NCBI GenBank assembly: GCA_043813365.1
Contig: JBDRLB010000007.1
Location: 1-31,760 of the forward strand
Direction: 5' to 3'
DNA: 31,760 bases
Source: Candidatus Micrarchaeota archaeon
Lineage (GTDB): Archaea > Micrarchaeota > Micrarchaeia > Norongarragalinales > SBBD01
Position numbers and translations under genes: made by a program. The notes beneath the pieces are model-generated. The model was not told the DNA's origin, searched no databases, and worked only from the letters and a program-made list of their open reading frames with translations. Shown in pieces: positions 19,122-28,668 of the stretch; the stretch's first letter is position 1; every line of letters starts with the position of its first letter.

Positions 19122-19131
19122 CCTAATGTAT

Positions 19132-19371
19132 ATGGAAGTCTCAACCGTACGATTGCACAAGCGCACAAAATCCTACCTCGACCGTTACCGGGAATATCGG
19201 AATGAGAGTTATGATGAGGTAGTGATGAAGCTCGTAGGCATCGCGGATCATCTTAAAAGCGATCCTGACCTGTCGAGGGAGGCGGTCGAACGGGTTGAAG
19301 CAGCACGGAAACGCATAAAAAATAACGAGTTCATTACTGAAACGGAGGCTAGGAAAAGGCTAGGCTTGTGA
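19132..19371 (+). CDS. Putative antitoxin with RHH-like N-terminus
   Basis: STVRL...ESYDEVVMKL N-terminus, ITETEARKRLGL tail; GTGA overlap with the relE-like gene. Confidence 0.8.
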   Translation: MEVSTVRLHKRTKSYLDRYREYRNESYDEVVMKLVGIADHLKSDPDLSREAVERVEAARKRIKNNEFITETEARKRLGL

Positions 19372-19625
19372 CGTACGAACTGATTTTTGATAAGAATGCA
19401 ATTAAATTTCTGGAAGGCCTCCCAACTGCAATCAGGGAGCGCATTTTCAACAAAATTTCCGCCGCAAAGGAAAATCCCAATCATTTTTTCGAGCGCTTGG
19501 AGAACAGGAGCGACTATAAGCTGCGCGTCGGCGATTACCGGGTCATTGCGGATATCGATCACAACCTGAAGAGGATAGAAATAACCCTGATTGACCATCG
19601 TAAACGGGTTTACAAGCGGATCTGA
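19368..19625 (+). CDS. relE: RelE/ParE family toxin
   Basis: YELIF..A.KFL, YKLRVGDYRVI, HRKRVY. Confidence 0.9.
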   Translation: MTYELIFDKNAIKFLEGLPTAIRERIFNKISAAKENPNHFFERLENRSDYKLRVGDYRVIADIDHNLKRIEITLIDHRKRVYKRI

Positions 19626-19651
19626 TCCCAAAAGCCAAGATTTAAAGCGTT

Positions 19652-19710
19652 GAGGCGCCAAAATTAGTTTTCTTTTAGTGAAGTTTTTCTTTCCCTAAAA
19701 GAAAAAGTTC
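19652..19710 (+). repeat. Hairpin repeat copy in the tRNA leader, ending at tRNA position -1
   Basis: GAGGCGC..TTTTCTTTTAGTGAAGTTTTTCTTTCCCTAAAAGAAAAAGTTC, an inverted homolog of intron 19751-19800. Confidence 0.7.
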
Positions 19711-19879
19711 GCAGGGATGCCGGAGCCTGGTCAAACGGGATGGACTCAAGGAACCTCTTTTCTTATGAAGAAAAGACGTTCACGAGAAAAGAAGCGCCTC
19801 GCAAACAAGTTGTTCGGCGCATTTTTTGGGAGATCCATTAGCCTCAGGGCTTGCGTGGGTTCAAATCCCTCTCCCTGCA
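19711..19879 (+). tRNA. tRNA-Leu(CAA) with 82-nt intron at canonical 37/38 (19751-19832); CCA not encoded
   Basis: Acceptor GCAGGGA/TCCCTGC plus A73; anticodon stem ATGGA/TCCAT; CAA at 19747-19749; variable arm AGCC/GGCT; TTCAAAT T-loop; BHB central helix CTCA/TGGG with AGA bulge. Confidence 0.93.
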
Positions 19880-19900: not shown

Positions 19901-20383
19901 ATGTTATATATTTCAACAGGCAGGAAGCCCTCCGTCACAACAAGGAAACTCGCAAGACTGCTCTCGCTCATTCTAAATGCGAAATACGAGAACCGCGGGA
20001 AGCGCTCAGTTGATGATGTATGTGAAAGGGCGGAAAAATCCGGCTGCTCAAGGATCGCCTTCATCTATGAAAAGAAGGGCAACCCTTCCTCAATCCAATT
20101 TTTCGATTCGGAAAAGGGCTGGTTGAAGGAGGAGTTTATAATTGCCGGGGTGGTTGTTCCGGAATTTGAAAAACGGAAAAGGATTCCGCAGCAAATGGAA
20201 GTTAAATCTGATGATGAAAATGGCAAAAAAATAATCCGCCTTCTCGGTTTGGAGGAATCCGACGAATTCCCCTCCCCTCTTCATGGCATATTCTCGGGCA
20301 GGGGAATGGAATTCCTTCTGAACAATGAAAAAATCCTCTTCCTAAAGGGAAAACTAATCGAATCTCCTAAAACGCACGACTAG
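19901..20383 (+). CDS. Brix-domain ribosome biogenesis protein (archaeal Imp4-like)
   Basis: ISTGRKPSVTTR, NRGKRS, EKKGNPS motifs. Confidence 0.85.
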   Translation: MLYISTGRKPSVTTRKLARLLSLILNAKYENRGKRSVDDVCERAEKSGCSRIAFIYEKKGNPSSIQFFDSEKGWLKEEFIIAGVVVPEFEKRKRIPQQMEVKSDDENGKKIIRLLGLEESDEFPSPLHGIFSGRGMEFLLNNEKILFLKGKLIESPKTHD

Positions 20384-23300
20384 AACACTTCCCAAAATCA
20401 CAACAAACATCAGTACTGCATAATAACTGTTCTCTGGAAATGAGGGAATCGAAAGGTTGGTGCCTCCAGCCCCACCACCTGCTCCTGTTCTCGCATAAGT
20501 GTACAGATTGTCCGCAGGGATTCCCCTTGTCCCATCGGGCGTATTATACAGGCTCAGCCCCCTCTTCGCAAAGTCCTGGTTCCAGTTGATGTCCTGCCCA
20601 TTGAGCGCATACCACAATCCAGTGCGCGGATCAAATGCTATCATCCCTCCCATTCCTTTTGCCGCAATAAGGGCAGCAAGTTCCGCAAGCCCATTGGGGC
20701 CGTTCGCAGTAAGCCACGGCTGGCCGTTCTGCATATCTATTTTGAACCTGAACTCCCCTTGATCGGTCGGGACGATTATCTCATTCCCCTCCTTCCTTAC
20801 AGGCCCGTTAATCTTGTAATCATTCGATTCGCCGGTAGTCTTATCGAGCACGGTCAGAATTGGGTTTCCGTTCGCATCCGTCCCGAATGTGAATTTCTTG
20901 TTGTCCGTCTCAAGCACCTGGAAGCCGCCGAGGTTGCCATTCGCATCGGTTTGCACCTCCTTAAGCGCCTCCCTCATTTCCGCTCCCTCCTTCTCAGCGC
21001 CCACCTTCTCCTGCACATCCGTTATCGCAATTGCCGGCACAGAATTTCCATTGCTGTCCTTATTCGTCCTTACTGCAGTTGATATGCTCTTGATGGAATC
21101 TCCCGCCTTGTTCTTTGCAAGTATATAAAGCGCAACAACAAGCCGTTTCCCAGCTTCATCAAATTCGATTTTCCCTCTTTCAGTGATGATTGCAAGCAGC
21201 TTCCCTGCGCTGACGCTGTCCATATCCTCGCTGTTCTTGATGTTCCCCTTGATCTTCACTTCGCCGTTGCCCATTATGGAAATGTAGTTGTTTTTGAAAG
21301 CGCTCAAATCCTTCTCCTCCGTTGCCTCCAAACTCGGCGCTTGCACTTCTATCCCGATTGTATCATTCTCCCCTTCTTCCTCCGCAACTCCCCTGATGAA
21401 CCTTACTCTCCCGCCATCAGCAGAAATCCTCCCATCGGTAGTGTAAACCGCGAGCACATCCCCAAAACCAGATGCTGTAAGGTCATTCGTTGCGCTGATT
21501 TTCATCTGCTTCAGCTGCTGCCTTAAGCACTGGGTGGTTGTGCAACTGTCATCTGAAATTATAAGCGATCCGCCCCTTCTCCCTTTCTCCAAAGTGGGCT
21601 GCACCTGCAAAATCTCATTCTCGGAGCAAGTGTTGTCCAAACCTGCAGAAATGATCCTGTTGGGCACCAGCGTTCTTGCAAGGTCTTGCATCATCAATGA
21701 AAGCAATCCGCGGTCCTTGCTCGTTGATAATTTGATGCTCTTTCCACTCGTTTTGTCAGTGTAAGTTACCCCTGTTGCATCCGCGCAAACATACCCATCC
21801 TTCGAATCATAGCATTCCCTGAAGCAGCCATTCTTTGCCAATTTATCATAAACGCCAAACCATTGCGAGGTTGCACCATCCAGATGCAAATAATACAGAT
21901 CCTGCGGGCTTATTTGCCCGTAAGAGTTCTCCAAAAATGCCCTCAAATTAAGTAATTCGGAGAGCGACTTCTCCTCGATTTTCTCCCCGATCCCGCCAAT
22001 CAGGCCCGTAAGGTTCAGGTCTTTTCCCAGATTTTTCAGGTCGCTAAGTTTCTGATCCATATTCTGCCCGGAAGTCCCGCCTGCGATTTTCTGGTAAGCA
22101 ACTATTTTGTATTTCGTGTCCTTGCAAAGCGAAACATATTCCATTCCCTGAGAGGCAACAACTGTTTTTCCTAATTGAATGGGGTCGATCAGCACCATCG
22201 CCTGATAAAGGTTTCTTAGCGCTTTTTCACTCCCCGTAAGGCCTTTTTTTAAGAGACCGCTATCTTCCTTCACAGCCGTCTTGAGGCTATTGTATGTTTT
22301 TTCAACTTCCGTAAATTTTGGTGTCAATGCCTGCTCCGCCCTGACTGCCTGATTCCATTCCAATAGCGCTTGCTGGGCTTGGACTGACTGTGGGCTTAGC
22401 TGGGATTCCCTGGTATATGTGTTAAATTTGCTGAGGGTTAGCTTTTGTGCATCCTTGAAGGGTTCGCTGACTGCCTTAAGTTCCGTTTCAGCAAGGGTAA
22501 GTTCCTTCCTCATTGCCGGCGTCACCTTCCCGAACCAACTTTCAGTTTTTCCGGCAGCTGCCCCTTTTTCAACGAGCCTGATCAGGACCTTGTTCTTGAA
22601 TGCGGATCCGAGAAATTGCAGTAGTCCCTGCGACGGCATAAATACCGCTCCAGTCGACTGGAGAATTGAAACCCCCGTAAGAACTTTGAACCAGTCGAGA
22701 TAATTATCCACTTTTTCTTCATCGCACATCTCATCCTTCTTGAAATTCACCGGATCGACCAGATGAGTTACTGCAAGGTCGAATGTGCCTAGCCGGATGA
22801 GCGCCGCAATCGGAACCGTCAAATATTGTGAAGTTGTCCCCCTGAACACTACAAATCCTACTAACGGAGAGAGCACCTGAAGGGCACGGAAATAGTCGCC
22901 AAGGCTCTCCTTCGAATTCATCGTCGTACCCAAATCCAGGTTGTTGCTATACATTGCCAAACTGGTATACTCCGGCTGGTATTTCACGTCTTCAAACAAC
23001 GATGTCTCTGATCTGCCTTTCCAATCGATGTTGACATTCCATCTATCTGCCGCTTTTTGTATGCTGGTGACGCTGCTCGAAGGCGCCGTATCCTCCGATG
23101 CTTCCCTTGCAAGCATGTATACTTTTCCAACATCAAATGCTTTTCTGGGCGCTCCAGCTTCAAGGAAATTTGAAACCCAATCTGTGATAATTCCAGAGCC
23201 CATGAAATCAGTTGCCTTCCGGAAATCCTTCAGGTATGCGTTGTTGTTCACGTAAATTTGCAGGTAATTGTCCTTCAGCGCCTTGTCATTCGTTGCAAGG

Positions 23301-24553
23301 GAAGATAGCATTACTTGGTTGGACGCGGAAAGTGCTACCCTCGCGGCTCCCATCCAGCCAAGCCCGAAGATGAAAATTGACATCGGCCGCAATTTATAGA
23401 TGGATGTTTCGAATTCAAGGTTCCTGATATTAATGTCGTCCAGGGCGATTTTTTTATCGAGATCCAATCCCCTTTCCAATAATTCCTCGTTTTTCGCACT
23501 TGTTGAGCCAAACGATCCCTGCCTTAGCTGTGAAAGCCTGTTGTATTGCTGGTTGTTATCTCCGTGTGTCCTTATCAATCCCTGAACTCCTTCCTTTGAA
23601 AACATCACAGATACTGTGCCCGCAAGCGCAAAGAACATTTCCGCCTGCGACCATGAACCCACCGTGTTAATGTATTTCTCATACATGCTCGGTATTATCA
23701 TGGAACCGGAATAGCTGTTCAGGACGGCAAGCGTCTGAGTTGCGGTGATGTGCTGCGGCTTCTTCACAACCGTCTTGCTCTCATCGAACCCCACATATAG
23801 GTCGCTGTCGAGCAGCGCCTGGAACGACACTTTCCCTGCAATGAAATTCCTGTCCAGCATGCACGCATCCTTCTTGTCCTGCGGCTGCACCTTCATCAGC
23901 TCCGCAAGTGCAACGCTCTTCCCATTGGGAAGCACCACTTTGTAATTCTCATATTCCGGAGTTGGTATTTGGCCTGCAGTTGAAATTCCAAGCGACTTGA
24001 TCAGGTTGCTCCCCCCTCCGGGCTGCCTTGCTGCAATTGCCTTCACCTGCTCCATAGTCAATTTCCCATTATTGGGGTCAATATTGAACTCCTTCGCGAG
24101 CTCCTCCCTTTGCTCATCCTCATATTCCAGCAGGGACGCAACTGACCTAATGTCATATGTAGGCGGATCGTTCAGGTTGATGTTTATTTGTATCTGCTGC
24201 GCTGCCTTGTTGGTGGGATCGTTCTTCAATAACGCCTCATCACTCAATGTTGAAATCTGCTCCGCCTGGAATTTCGCTAATTTTTGCTGGTACGCCTCCA
24301 CTTCAGCTGCATCCATTGCAGATGCAGTGCAAGTGCCCTCATAATCGAATTCCGGCTCCGGAGAAGGGGAAGCATCCGCGAAATTGATTATATTGGGGGC
24401 CGTTCGGGCCTTTACCGCAATTGCACCCCTGCTTTCATCATCATTGTAGTAATTGTAATAGGAATACGCGTGGCTTAGCGGGATGAAAATCTGCACGAAG
24501 AGCAATGCAATGACCGCAATTGGAAAAACCTGCAGGGTGTTCTGGTTTTTCAT
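20354..24553 (-). CDS. 1399-aa secreted or surface protein with internal hydrophobic helices and C-terminal anchor
   Basis: Signal peptide ending SHA; internal hydrophobic segments; Cys-containing C-terminal half; Gly linker, IPSFPE, TM, RFRR. Confidence 0.8.
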   Translation of the reverse strand: MKNQNTLQVFPIAVIALLFVQIFIPLSHAYSYYNYYNDDESRGAIAVKARTAPNIINFADASPSPEPEFDYEGTCTASAMDAAEVEAYQQKLAKFQAEQISTLSDEALLKNDPTNKAAQQIQININLNDPPTYDIRSVASLLEYEDEQREELAKEFNIDPNNGKLTMEQVKAIAARQPGGGSNLIKSLGISTAGQIPTPEYENYKVVLPNGKSVALAELMKVQPQDKKDACMLDRNFIAGKVSFQALLDSDLYVGFDESKTVVKKPQHITATQTLAVLNSYSGSMIIPSMYEKYINTVGSWSQAEMFFALAGTVSVMFSKEGVQGLIRTHGDNNQQYNRLSQLRQGSFGSTSAKNEELLERGLDLDKKIALDDINIRNLEFETSIYKLRPMSIFIFGLGWMGAARVALSASNQVMLSSLATNDKALKDNYLQIYVNNNAYLKDFRKATDFMGSGIITDWVSNFLEAGAPRKAFDVGKVYMLAREASEDTAPSSSVTSIQKAADRWNVNIDWKGRSETSLFEDVKYQPEYTSLAMYSNNLDLGTTMNSKESLGDYFRALQVLSPLVGFVVFRGTTSQYLTVPIAALIRLGTFDLAVTHLVDPVNFKKDEMCDEEKVDNYLDWFKVLTGVSILQSTGAVFMPSQGLLQFLGSAFKNKVLIRLVEKGAAAGKTESWFGKVTPAMRKELTLAETELKAVSEPFKDAQKLTLSKFNTYTRESQLSPQSVQAQQALLEWNQAVRAEQALTPKFTEVEKTYNSLKTAVKEDSGLLKKGLTGSEKALRNLYQAMVLIDPIQLGKTVVASQGMEYVSLCKDTKYKIVAYQKIAGGTSGQNMDQKLSDLKNLGKDLNLTGLIGGIGEKIEEKSLSELLNLRAFLENSYGQISPQDLYYLHLDGATSQWFGVYDKLAKNGCFRECYDSKDGYVCADATGVTYTDKTSGKSIKLSTSKDRGLLSLMMQDLARTLVPNRIISAGLDNTCSENEILQVQPTLEKGRRGGSLIISDDSCTTTQCLRQQLKQMKISATNDLTASGFGDVLAVYTTDGRISADGGRVRFIRGVAEEEGENDTIGIEVQAPSLEATEEKDLSAFKNNYISIMGNGEVKIKGNIKNSEDMDSVSAGKLLAIITERGKIEFDEAGKRLVVALYILAKNKAGDSIKSISTAVRTNKDSNGNSVPAIAITDVQEKVGAEKEGAEMREALKEVQTDANGNLGGFQVLETDNKKFTFGTDANGNPILTVLDKTTGESNDYKINGPVRKEGNEIIVPTDQGEFRFKIDMQNGQPWLTANGPNGLAELAALIAAKGMGGMIAFDPRTGLWYALNGQDINWNQDFAKRGLSLYNTPDGTRGIPADNLYTYARTGAGGGAGGTNLSIPSFPENSYYAVLMFVVILGSVLVVRFRRFD

Positions 24554-28129: not shown

Positions 28130-28141
28130 GAATCCGCAACT

Positions 28142-28205
28142 CAAATTGTTTTCTTTCCGGCGGAGCCACCGCCGCTTTCTTTTCTGAAAAGAAAGGGGCA
28201 AGGCA
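28142..28205 (+). repeat. Hairpin repeat copy between pyrI and the HAD gene
   Basis: CAAATTGTTTTCTTT, CGGCGG/CCGCCG stem, CTTTCTTTT-CTG-AAAAGAAAG stem, GGGGCAAGGCA end. Confidence 0.65.
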
Positions 28206-28206
28206 T

Positions 28207-28668
28207 TCAAAACTTGAAATCCGCTTCGCCGTAAACTTTCTCGCAGAAATTGCATTGCAGCTTCAGGGGGTTCCGTTCCTTCACATGCAGCTTCGCAACT
28301 CCCTCCTTATTGGTGATGCAGTTCGGGTTCGGGCATTGCACCACTCCCTCAAGCACTTCCGGAAGCTTCACCTTGTACTTCTCAATCACTTCGAAATCCT
28401 TGATGATGTTGATGGTAGCTAAGGGCGCGATCAGGGCGATTTTCTCAAGCTCCTTCTTCCTCAGCTCCCTTCCCTCGATTTTGATGATGTCCTTCAGCCC
28501 TGACGAGCCCGAAGGCACGTTTATCAGCACCGAAACCGTGCCCTTGAACTCCTCGTTTATTCCGAGTATTGAAAGTAATTTCGTGGATTTCCCCTGAGGG
28601 ATATGGTCCACCACGATCCCACTTTCGATTTTCTTCACCTTCAGCATGTCCTTTTCAGTTTTTGCCAT
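28207..28668 (-). CDS. pyrI: Aspartate carbamoyltransferase regulatory chain
   Basis: GIVVDHI, KDIIKIE, ATINII, CPNPNCIT, CNFCE; GGTGA RBS. Confidence 0.96.
   Translation of the reverse strand: MAKTEKDMLKVKKIESGIVVDHIPQGKSTKLLSILGINEEFKGTVSVLINVPSGSSGLKDIIKIEGRELRKKELEKIALIAPLATINIIKDFEVIEKYKVKLPEVLEGVVQCPNPNCITNKEGVAKLHVKERNPLKLQCNFCEKVYGEADFKF

Follow-up and report, generated by a model that had tools for sequence, protein, structure and literature searches.

A tRNA-Leu(CAA) 5′ exon framed by two inverted copies of a ~44-nt hairpin module in a Micrarchaeota genome

Introns of archaeal tRNA genes have been gained repeatedly, and the mode of their arrival is unsettled. The "transposed" introns of the Thermoproteales, reportedly described by Fujishima et al. 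in 2010, are said to be near-identical introns that lie in different tRNA genes or at different positions of one genome, implying copying. Small, non-coding, palindromic sequences in many copies are also familiar as miniature inverted-repeat transposable elements (MITEs) and as repetitive extragenic palindromic (REP) elements with their RAYT transposases, and in the split and permuted tRNA genes of Nanoarchaeum and Caldivirga the flanks pair to build a bulge-helix-bulge (BHB) motif. For Asgard tRNA introns, a 2026 preprint still calls the mode of arrival open (10.64898/2026.10.13.758758). The splicing endonuclease (EndA) of the epsilon2 type cuts relaxed motifs and has a broad specificity, according to the available portions of two papers (PMC3239211, PMC3488258), and the available text on BoxC/PIT elements describes them as repetitive and tied to genomic rearrangement (Holder et al. 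2015, PMC4666352). Here we describe a tRNA-Leu(CAA) gene whose 5′ exon stands between two inverted copies of a repeat module. The gene lies in a 31,760-nt stretch of DNA from a Candidatus Micrarchaeota archaeon (assembly GCA_043813365.1, contig JBDRLB010000007.1, forward strand), hereafter called the window, which is contig C7 of a source genome of 1.34 Mb in 78 contigs (88.6% complete).

The segment just upstream of the tRNA and the start of its intron are two oppositely oriented copies of one ~44-nt module. An earlier note on this DNA, made from the letters alone, had pointed to inverted look-alikes that frame the 5′ exon and end at its two processing sites, and both observations hold: the leader copy ends at position -1 (19710), the intron copy starts at the first intron base (19751), and a covariance model of the family (R1) matches the two segments on opposite strands, each abutting the exon. 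R1 was built from 31 copies in 14 other genomes, with the source genome excluded. Searched with filters off, the window contains only two full-length matches in its 31.8 kb, at 19668-19711(-) (49.6 bits, E=3.6e-8; 13 bits on the opposite strand) and at 19750-19794(+) (48.9 bits, E=5e-8; 12 bits on the opposite strand). Two more 43-nt leader copies that end exactly at +1 are found elsewhere in the source genome, at a tRNA-Leu(CAG) gene on contig C13 and at a tRNA read as Ser(GGA) on C65, and the window's leader copy is 90.5% identical to the former over 42 nt and 88.4% identical to the latter over 43 nt (blastn). The scan of other tRNA leaders and introns that the earlier note had proposed thus yields these two leaders as well as introns on C3, C19 and elsewhere; the copies on C3 and C17 share ~55 identical nt within different flanks. 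That note had also counted an outer GAGGCGC (19652-19658) and GCGCCTC (19795-19801) into the repeat. These lie outside the module, are missing from the C13 and C65 leader copies and from the orthologous introns, and represent a coincidental extension; the GAGGCGC on the leader side sits between a TATA-like box and the predicted transcription start. The features of the locus are the following.

19640-19647 (+): putative TATA-like box ATTTAAAG, from the sequence and its alignment with the TTTAAGG box of the G005 ortholog
19668-19710 (-): leader copy of the module, inverted with respect to the tRNA; R1 match, hairpin arms, identity to the C13 and C65 leaders
19668-19710, leader copy as transcribed: third tract (Y3) 19668-19676, linker 19677-19679, foot 19680-19683/19707-19710, pyrimidine (Y) arm 19684-19692, loop 19693-19697, purine (R) arm 19698-19706
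19711-19750 (+): tRNA-Leu(CAA) 5′ exon, positions 1-37, 40 nt; cloverleaf from ARAGORN -i, BHB register from the sequence and the orthologs
19751-19832 (+): whole 82-nt intron at the canonical 37/38 site; length from ARAGORN, register read by hand
19751-19794 (+): intron copy of the module, sense; R1 match, hairpin of -11.0 kcal/mol, kept in the G001, G003, G004 and G005 orthologs
19751-19794, parts of the intron copy: foot 19751-19754/19778-19781, Y arm 19756-19764, loop 19765-19767, R arm 19768-19776, spacer 19782-19784, third tract (R3) 19785-19794
19786-19827 (+): second intron hairpin, predicted in minimum-free-energy folds, in which R3 pairs with a U-run (19821-19827) and GCGCC (19795-19799) with GGCGC (19816-19820)
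19833-19879 (+): tRNA 3′ exon, A38 to discriminator A73, with a long variable arm; ARAGORN -i

The module basically consists of a 9-11 bp polypyrimidine/polypurine (Y/R) hairpin on a 3-4 bp foot, followed by a short spacer and a third tract that mirrors the purine arm; the foot is set off from the arms by a C.C mismatch. In type 1, which includes the window's pair, the order is foot, Y arm, loop, R arm, short spacer and third purine tract. The hairpin arms of the window's copies span 19680-19692/19698-19710 in the leader and 19751-19764/19768-19781 in the intron, where the C.C mismatch is at 19755/19777; the leader foot holds a G.G mismatch at 19683/19707. Type 2 is a palindromic dimer of ~125-136 nt with ends GCCTTGCC...GGCAAGGC, often located in T-loop introns at position 59/60, and type-2 half copies occur 3′ of open reading frame (ORF) stops. 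The hairpin was checked in an alignment of the 31 copies (A2), where 78.2% of the cells are paired, as compared with 72.0 ± 1.1% after shuffling and 52-69% with slid partners, and 45 cells are changed on both sides, as compared with 22.5 ± 4.0 after shuffling (none of 500 shuffles reach 45). In the source genome there are 55 pure Y/R hairpins (1, 0 and 2 in three shuffled genomes), and 41 of these are family-like, having a third tract or a GCCTTGC-type end. Almost half of the family-like hairpins (20 of 41) lie within 150 nt of listed tRNA evidence, a territory of 0.9% of the genome, and several of the others are in tRNAs overlooked by the tools. R1 itself has at least 8 matches among the best 150 of 1179 first-look candidates in the source genome, a number that is not a census. 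Location inside an open frame of at least 100 codons was discarded as a measure of context, as such frames cover 95.5% of the genome and the measure is uninformative.

The tRNA is the only one found in the window, at 19711-19879 with an 82-nt intron, by ARAGORN with introns allowed. Default ARAGORN and Rfam at the gathering score give no tRNA in the window, and this tRNA is also missing from the 25 matches (E<=1) of the Rfam tRNA model in the genome. Genome-wide, ARAGORN with introns allowed finds 23 tRNAs, of which 14 bear introns, including introns at T-loop 59/60 sites; module insertions explain why many tRNA genes of such genomes are overlooked by standard annotation tools. The ARAGORN label Ser(cga) was dropped in favor of Leu(CAA) on the basis of the BHB register, discriminator A73 and the likeness to Leu paralogs, the body being similar to those of Leu(CAG) and Leu(UAA) elsewhere in this genome. 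In the register read by hand, the intron boundaries follow G37 (19750/19751 and 19832/19833), which gives the anticodon CAA. The central helix pairs C32 U33 C34 A35 with 19830-19827 (4 bp, one G.U) and is flanked by the 3-nt bulges A36 G37 G19751 and A19831 G19832 A38, so that, by reading of the letters, the two 3-nt bulges, the 4-bp helix and the 37/38 position of a canonical archaeal hBHBh′ motif are all present. The G005 ortholog has a flawless CUCA/UGAG central helix. The energy-model fold favors a slightly shifted register over the hand-read one.

The two copies differ in age. Among the Leu(CAA) orthologs of five congeneric genomes (G001-G005), four have a type-1 module at the intron start, with concerted changes in the Y arm, the R arm and the third tract. 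The fifth, G002, has a type-2 half at the orthologous 37/38 site (L006, G002:C6), and the module has therefore been replaced at a fixed intron position. On the evidence of these orthologs, the intron copy is ancestral in the genus. The leaders of all five orthologs are plain, with no module and a TATA-like box ~30 nt before +1. In G005, this TTTAAGG box aligns, along with the bases that follow it, with the TTTAAAG box of the window (19641), which places the predicted transcription start at ~19668-19672, where the leader module begins; transcription of the leader is thus plausible. A contig from a public run (X2) bridges 19584-19795 with zero differences, and a second, single contig of low depth (X3) is 98% identical over 19711-19821, its 2 differences in these 111 nt both falling in the hairpin loop, and has unrelated sequence upstream of 19711. 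The simplest reading is that the leader copy is a recent gain of 43 nt between the transcription start and +1. The locus then presents a dated snapshot, in which one tRNA gene has an old intron copy and a newly gained leader copy, with the break exactly at +1.

The leader copy of the Leu(CAG) gene is likewise missing from the orthologs of all five congeners, which have T-loop introns that the C13 gene lacks. The leader copy of Ser(GGA) has counterparts in G002, G003, G004 and G005, where a TATA is conserved ~75-80 nt before +1; no match to it was obtained in G001 (84% complete). Being genus-wide, this copy is old and the likely source, and both Leu leader copies are recent; the window's leader copy was probably duplicated from another leader copy in the same genome. 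In two of the congeners (L167 and L168; G004:C58 and G003:C62), the hairpin loop of the Ser(GGA) leader copy contains a ~60-nt structured insert, while the ends of the module are kept.

Across the order, a DPANN group of small genomes, R1 has matches at E<=0.001 in 42 of 67 genomes, in a scan run with stricter filters and with 93 candidates scored per genome. In addition, a Ca. Micrarchaeota metagenome-assembled genome (MAG) contains the module in a T-loop intron, and another archaeal MAG contains it directly 3′ of a tRNA. Placement was examined for the 40 top-scoring R1 matches in other genomes, a non-random sample for which context came from Rfam annotation, with the strand re-scored, and otherwise from inspection by eye. 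The largest group (29 of 40) comprises intron copies, all in sense orientation and with at most a few bases between the foot and the 5′ exon (8 calls based on Rfam tRNA coordinates, 1 on Rfam small-subunit (SSU) rRNA plus inspection, and 20 by eye). Three more are sense and lie in trailers, 0-2 nt after the tRNA end (Rfam coordinates). Another three lie in leaders, where each is inverted and has its end at -1 (placed from Rfam coordinates for L222 and by inspection for L192 and L207). One is the inverted right half of a dimeric insert in large-subunit (LSU) rRNA, with its foot toward the 3′ exon, and the remaining four are unclassified or beside ORFs. The rule is that the foot points toward the exon and the third tract away from it, so that intron 5′ ends and trailers contain sense copies, and leaders and the 3′ ends of dimeric introns contain inverted ones. 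None of the copies in the 40-locus sample breaks the foot-toward-exon rule, and five further trailer copies outside the sample are also sense. The framing of the window's exon by inverted copies corresponds to two applications of this rule. One idea, in which the inversion in leaders arises from the reverse complement of the 5′ acceptor strand mimicking the 3′ acceptor, was set aside, as the junction offsets (with the discriminator missing) fit it poorly.

Sense modules also occur within the 16S and 23S rRNA genes of relatives, and tandem arrays occur within introns; no rRNA genes are assembled in the source genome, so that rRNA-borne copies are known from the relatives only. The 16S and 23S genes concerned contain one to four modules (L162, G004:C4; L163, G002:C5; L012/L142/L143, G011:C63; L229, G048:C38), and full-length SSU matches of relatives span 1616-1647 nt, relative to a model of 1478 positions. 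In G019 (L145 and L146, on C19 and C5), three head-to-tail modules with ~39-nt spacing are found in the apparent T-loop intron of a minus-strand tRNA.

Several observations bear on how the module spreads. Where sense copies have the C.C mismatch, the leader RNA has G.G; inversion of the DNA would give this change, whereas selection on an RNA shape would not be expected to. Some copies have duplications of host sequence beside them. A tRNA 5′ end is repeated over 17/17 nt, a promoter together with a tRNA 5′ end over 61/63 nt, and a tRNA 3′ end over 24 nt; ORF ends are repeated over 39/46 and 30/35 nt, and an ORF start over 38/39 nt. At 7 control loci, the best match is 7-16 nt. The G.G/C.C inversion, the near-identical copies in unrelated hosts, the turnover at orthologous sites and the host duplications together point to copying at the DNA level. 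In one of the duplicated loci (L155; G000 C50:18230-18520), the perfect 17/17 copy of the tRNA 5′ end is followed by the module, ~75 nt of other sequence and then the complete tRNA gene, and a similar layout is seen in G005:C14 (L136), where the duplicate is 63 nt (promoter plus tRNA 5′ end). In another (L230; G047:C10:8937-9480), the module is at the 5′ end of a protein gene whose product starts MVRIAINGFGRIG; a 39-nt duplicate of the gene start (38 identical) is on the other side of the module, and the ORF is intact. A transposase of the Y1 (IS200) type was considered as the mobilizer and rejected: the genome has a single such gene (C8:179-523, 95.7 bits) at a contig start, and the hairpins that flank it are GC-rich and unrelated. 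The arrangement typical of REP/RAYT systems, in which a Y1 gene is flanked by the repeats that are mobilized, is therefore not seen, and the TnpB-type family PF07282 is absent from the genome search. Nor does the family have the form of a MITE, as ends resembling terminal inverted repeats are confined to the dimeric type 2, and target duplications are missing at most copies and 17-63 nt long elsewhere.

When the third tract is compared with its own purine arm in 65 distinct copies, the mirror image gives the better match in 46 and the direct repeat in 8, and the two are tied in 11; the mean identity is 0.94 for the mirror of the own arm, 0.85 for the direct repeat and 0.84 when the arms of other copies are used instead, in a test that is weak for each copy, as there are 1-2 G per arm and the copies share descent. 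The three tracts of the module, namely Y, its Watson-Crick partner R and a mirror of R, lie on one strand, and the third tract might, hypothetically, form a triplex with the hairpin. By reading of the bases, the leader RNA would have U.A-U and C+.G-C triples, with C19672 over G19701. The third tracts also have alternative partners, namely each other in dimeric introns and, in the window's intron, the downstream U-run that pairs with R3; the folding tools used here model Watson-Crick pairs only. If a triplex does form, the module would represent one of the rare three-stranded elements, of RNA or DNA, that occur naturally in archaea.

The reading that we favor, and consider likely, is that of a mobile or duplicative module that is tolerated at processed sites, present here in two inverted copies, of which the one in the intron is ancestral and the one in the leader was recently gained. 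Both copies fold locally in the predictions and, by established pathways, would then be discarded, the leader being removed by RNase P and the intron by an epsilon2-type splicing endonuclease acting on the canonical BHB. An RNase P RNA is located at C77:13338-13614 (103.5 bits). A splicing endonuclease is encoded as well: PF01974 matches fall in one 392-codon open frame on C73, and the 388-aa EndA matches PDB 4FZ2, the epsilon2 EndA of ARMAN-2, over residues 12-388 (E=2e-128). Several points weigh against this reading. Transcription of the leader and its removal are predictions, and a hairpin that is paired up to -1 is not an obvious substrate for RNase P. The exact abutment and fixed polarity exceed what "tolerated where removed" would explain, and may reflect a function in cleavage or targeted insertion. 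The suggestion of the earlier note, that the element survives only where RNA processing removes it, broadly fits the copies in tRNA introns, leaders, trailers and rRNA insertions, but it leaves the same abutment and polarity unexplained, and some copies are located after ORF stops. The Ser(GGA) leader copy persists genus-wide despite nested inserts of ~60 nt, which could indicate selection, and no mobilizing enzyme or mechanism of spread was found. Finally, the context of many copies was assigned by inspection (20 of the 29 introns, 2 of the 3 leaders), the 40 loci are the best-scoring matches rather than a random sample, and the copies share descent, so that the counts describe a pattern and not independent trials.

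A chance likeness between two low-complexity, A/T-rich hairpins is practically negligible as an explanation. The dinucleotide-shuffle check proposed in the earlier note is marginal when taken alone, since the reverse complement of the leader has an alignment score of 24 with the intron, and this score is reached in 42 of 2000 shuffles (16.3 ± 2.9); the leader in direct orientation has a score of 16, which is noise. A bare pure Y/R hairpin is moreover a widespread pattern in bacteria, and a scan for it gives at least 118 loci that are mostly bacterial, so swamped by bacterial hairpins that L061 and L064 are its only useful archaeal loci and no taxonomic distribution can be read from it. The family model is decisive here: it is independent of both copies, scores them with a strand asymmetry of 36 bits and has no other full-length match in the window. 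The excess of Y/R hairpins in the genome (55, versus 0-2 in shuffled genomes) also argues against chance. The earlier note had further proposed that leader-intron pairing gates maturation, with the paired modules looping out the 5′ exon and delaying the cloverleaf, RNase P cleavage or splicing until the pairing is resolved. The modules are complementary over most of their length, they end exactly at both processing sites, and as an isolated duplex (-21.3 kcal/mol) they nearly equal the two local folds (-22.8 kcal/mol). In the full precursor from 19668 (-79.4 kcal/mol, z = -4.85), however, the leader is folded on itself and the intron forms two local hairpins, the ensemble has 0.0 expected leader-intron pairs, and a forced leader-intron helix has -58.5 kcal/mol, which is 20.9 worse. 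The leader hairpin would also emerge first during transcription; within the leader, Y3 and the Y arm compete for the one R arm (-11.8 kcal/mol for the whole leader, -8.4 for the hairpin alone). The relatives argue against gating too, as the leader copy is missing from all five congeners and from the near-identical contig, the C13 and C65 Ser(GGA) leader copies have no partner module at an intron start (the C13 gene is intron-less), and leader copies elsewhere adjoin intron-less tRNAs (L222); pairing between leader and trailer is excluded for tRNA-Ser(GGA), which has no trailer copy. On these folds and comparisons, the module pair does not appear to act as a switch of tRNA maturation, and we regard gating as very unlikely.

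A more serious alternative, although still an unlikely one, is that the module is a cis-acting helper of processing, in which a stable helix with its foot stacked beside the cleavage site aids the enzymes. For the epsilon2 endonuclease, it could supply helix h′ on the intron side of a relaxed BHB, and it might let EndA, RNase P or RNase Z define the 5′ and 3′ ends; the third tract would stabilize the hairpin or bind a protein. This would account for the foot pointing toward the exon in each of the 36 copies with a classified context among the 40 loci, for the gap of only 0-2 nt between exon helix and foot in leaders and trailers, and for the conservation of the Ser(GGA) leader copy in four congeners; the mirroring of each arm by its own third tract (better in 46 of 65; 0.94 for the own arm versus 0.84 for others) and the relaxed-motif cutting ascribed to epsilon2 EndA in the available parts of PMC3239211 and PMC3488258 are in line with it. 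Against this, the Leu(CAA) and Leu(CAG) leaders are module-free in all five congeners, many tRNAs of the source genome have plain leaders (e.g., on C11), the module content at one site turns over among congeners, and copies are also found after ORF stops and inside the 5′ end of an ORF. Alternatively, the leader copy might be a transcription signal, either a promoter element or an oligo-T terminator of the upstream ParE gene, with the trailer copies serving as tRNA terminators and the likeness to the intron being incidental. Archaeal polymerases terminate at oligo-T, the Y tracts carry runs of 4-6 T, and trailer and after-ORF copies begin with a T-run right behind the gene. But the same T-runs are present within introns and rRNA genes, and a stop of transcription there would do harm. 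In the conserved Ser(GGA) copies, the counterpart of the leader's CTTTTAGT reads TTTTGGTG and does not resemble a TATA box. In addition, the foot of the leader copy faces the tRNA and not the ParE gene, which ends 43 nt upstream. We find this explanation scarcely credible.

A bolder reading, which we put forward tentatively and with more doubt than belief, is that of a self-propagating seed of archaeal introns. A triplex-prone hairpin would be copied as DNA, sometimes duplicating its target, and would come to lie foot-first at the borders of stable-RNA exons, where its hairpin would supply the intron-side helix for epsilon2 cutting. The foot-to-exon rule, the turnover at orthologous sites and the occasional long target duplications point to a process that is sensitive to structure as well as to position. 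If the seed reading is true, BHB introns, leaders and trailers would all newly arise from one family, which would perhaps also allow the endonuclease to trim tRNA ends, and the arrival of archaeal tRNA and rRNA introns would have a concrete route. The spread of introns would be linked to the broadened specificity of the epsilon2 endonuclease if the module assists or exploits this enzyme.

Elsewhere in the window is a half copy of the related type-2 module.

28140-28207 (-): type-2 half copy, with GCCTTGCC end, Y/R hairpin, GC mini-hairpin and mirror purine tract, directly after the TGA stop of PyrI

This half copy contains a weak R1 match at 28171-28199(-) (17.9 bits). The junction with PyrI (the regulatory chain of aspartate carbamoyltransferase), TTTTGAAT/GCCTTGCC, resembles the T-loop junction TTCGAAT/GCCTTGCC of tRNA introns. 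Just 5′ of the tRNA, at 19126-19625 (+), are two overlapping ORFs, of 81 aa (DUF7557) and 85 aa (ParE_toxin family, ending at 19625), which look like a type II toxin-antitoxin pair. On the 3′ side, a 1399-aa ORF at 20354-24553 (-) has a hydrophobic N-terminal segment and a hydrophobic C-terminal tail. A home-made finder of split tRNAs gave 18 matches only, some of them false, and was not used.

We found no description of the module family, its presence in leaders and trailers, or the polarity rule in the literature searched, which did not extend to subscription-only papers and supplements. Compared with split and permuted tRNA genes, the locus is similar in that a piece of tRNA has complementary flanks; it differs in that the gene is contiguous, the leader copy is dispensable in relatives, and the leader and intron flanks do not pair with each other in the predicted ensemble. 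The dimeric type 2, with its terminal inverted repeats GCCTTGCC...GGCAAGGC, is MITE-like, but there is no target duplication of fixed length, and no partner transposase was found. The locus resembles the transposed introns of the Thermoproteales in that introns in different tRNA genes and positions of this one genome are highly similar. Here, however, the lineage is DPANN, the unit is a defined ~44-nt hairpin with a mirror tract that obeys a polarity rule, and copies are also found outside introns, some of them flanked by host duplications. The BHB introns of ARMAN-2 (Ca. Micrarchaeum), whose tRNA genes are heavily disrupted, are cut by the epsilon2 enzyme and share with this genome the 37/38 intron with its 4-bp central helix and 3-nt bulges, the many intron-bearing tRNAs and a full-length EndA homolog (PMC3239211, PMC3488258). 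The available portions of these two papers give positions and motifs and mention no shared repeat module, whereas the introns here are built from one repeat family, which, unlike in those descriptions, is also found in leaders, trailers, rRNA genes and gene ends. The layout of the module itself is that of the BoxC/PIT and other intrastrand triplex (ITxF) motifs (PMC4666352, as far as its text is available), in which one strand carries the Y and R arms along with a mirror of R; the sense orientation corresponds to the class II layout, and the reverse complement to the pyrimidine-motif layout. Loop 1 of the module is 2-9 nt, and the spacer loop is 6-9 nt and partly foot-paired, as compared with the ITxF limit of 1-6 nt, and the ITxF case studied there is bacterial and G/C-rich, with "tRNA" occurring 0 times in the main text. 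We would class the present locus as a variant of two known kinds, namely copied introns of archaea and repeats of the intrastrand-triplex type.

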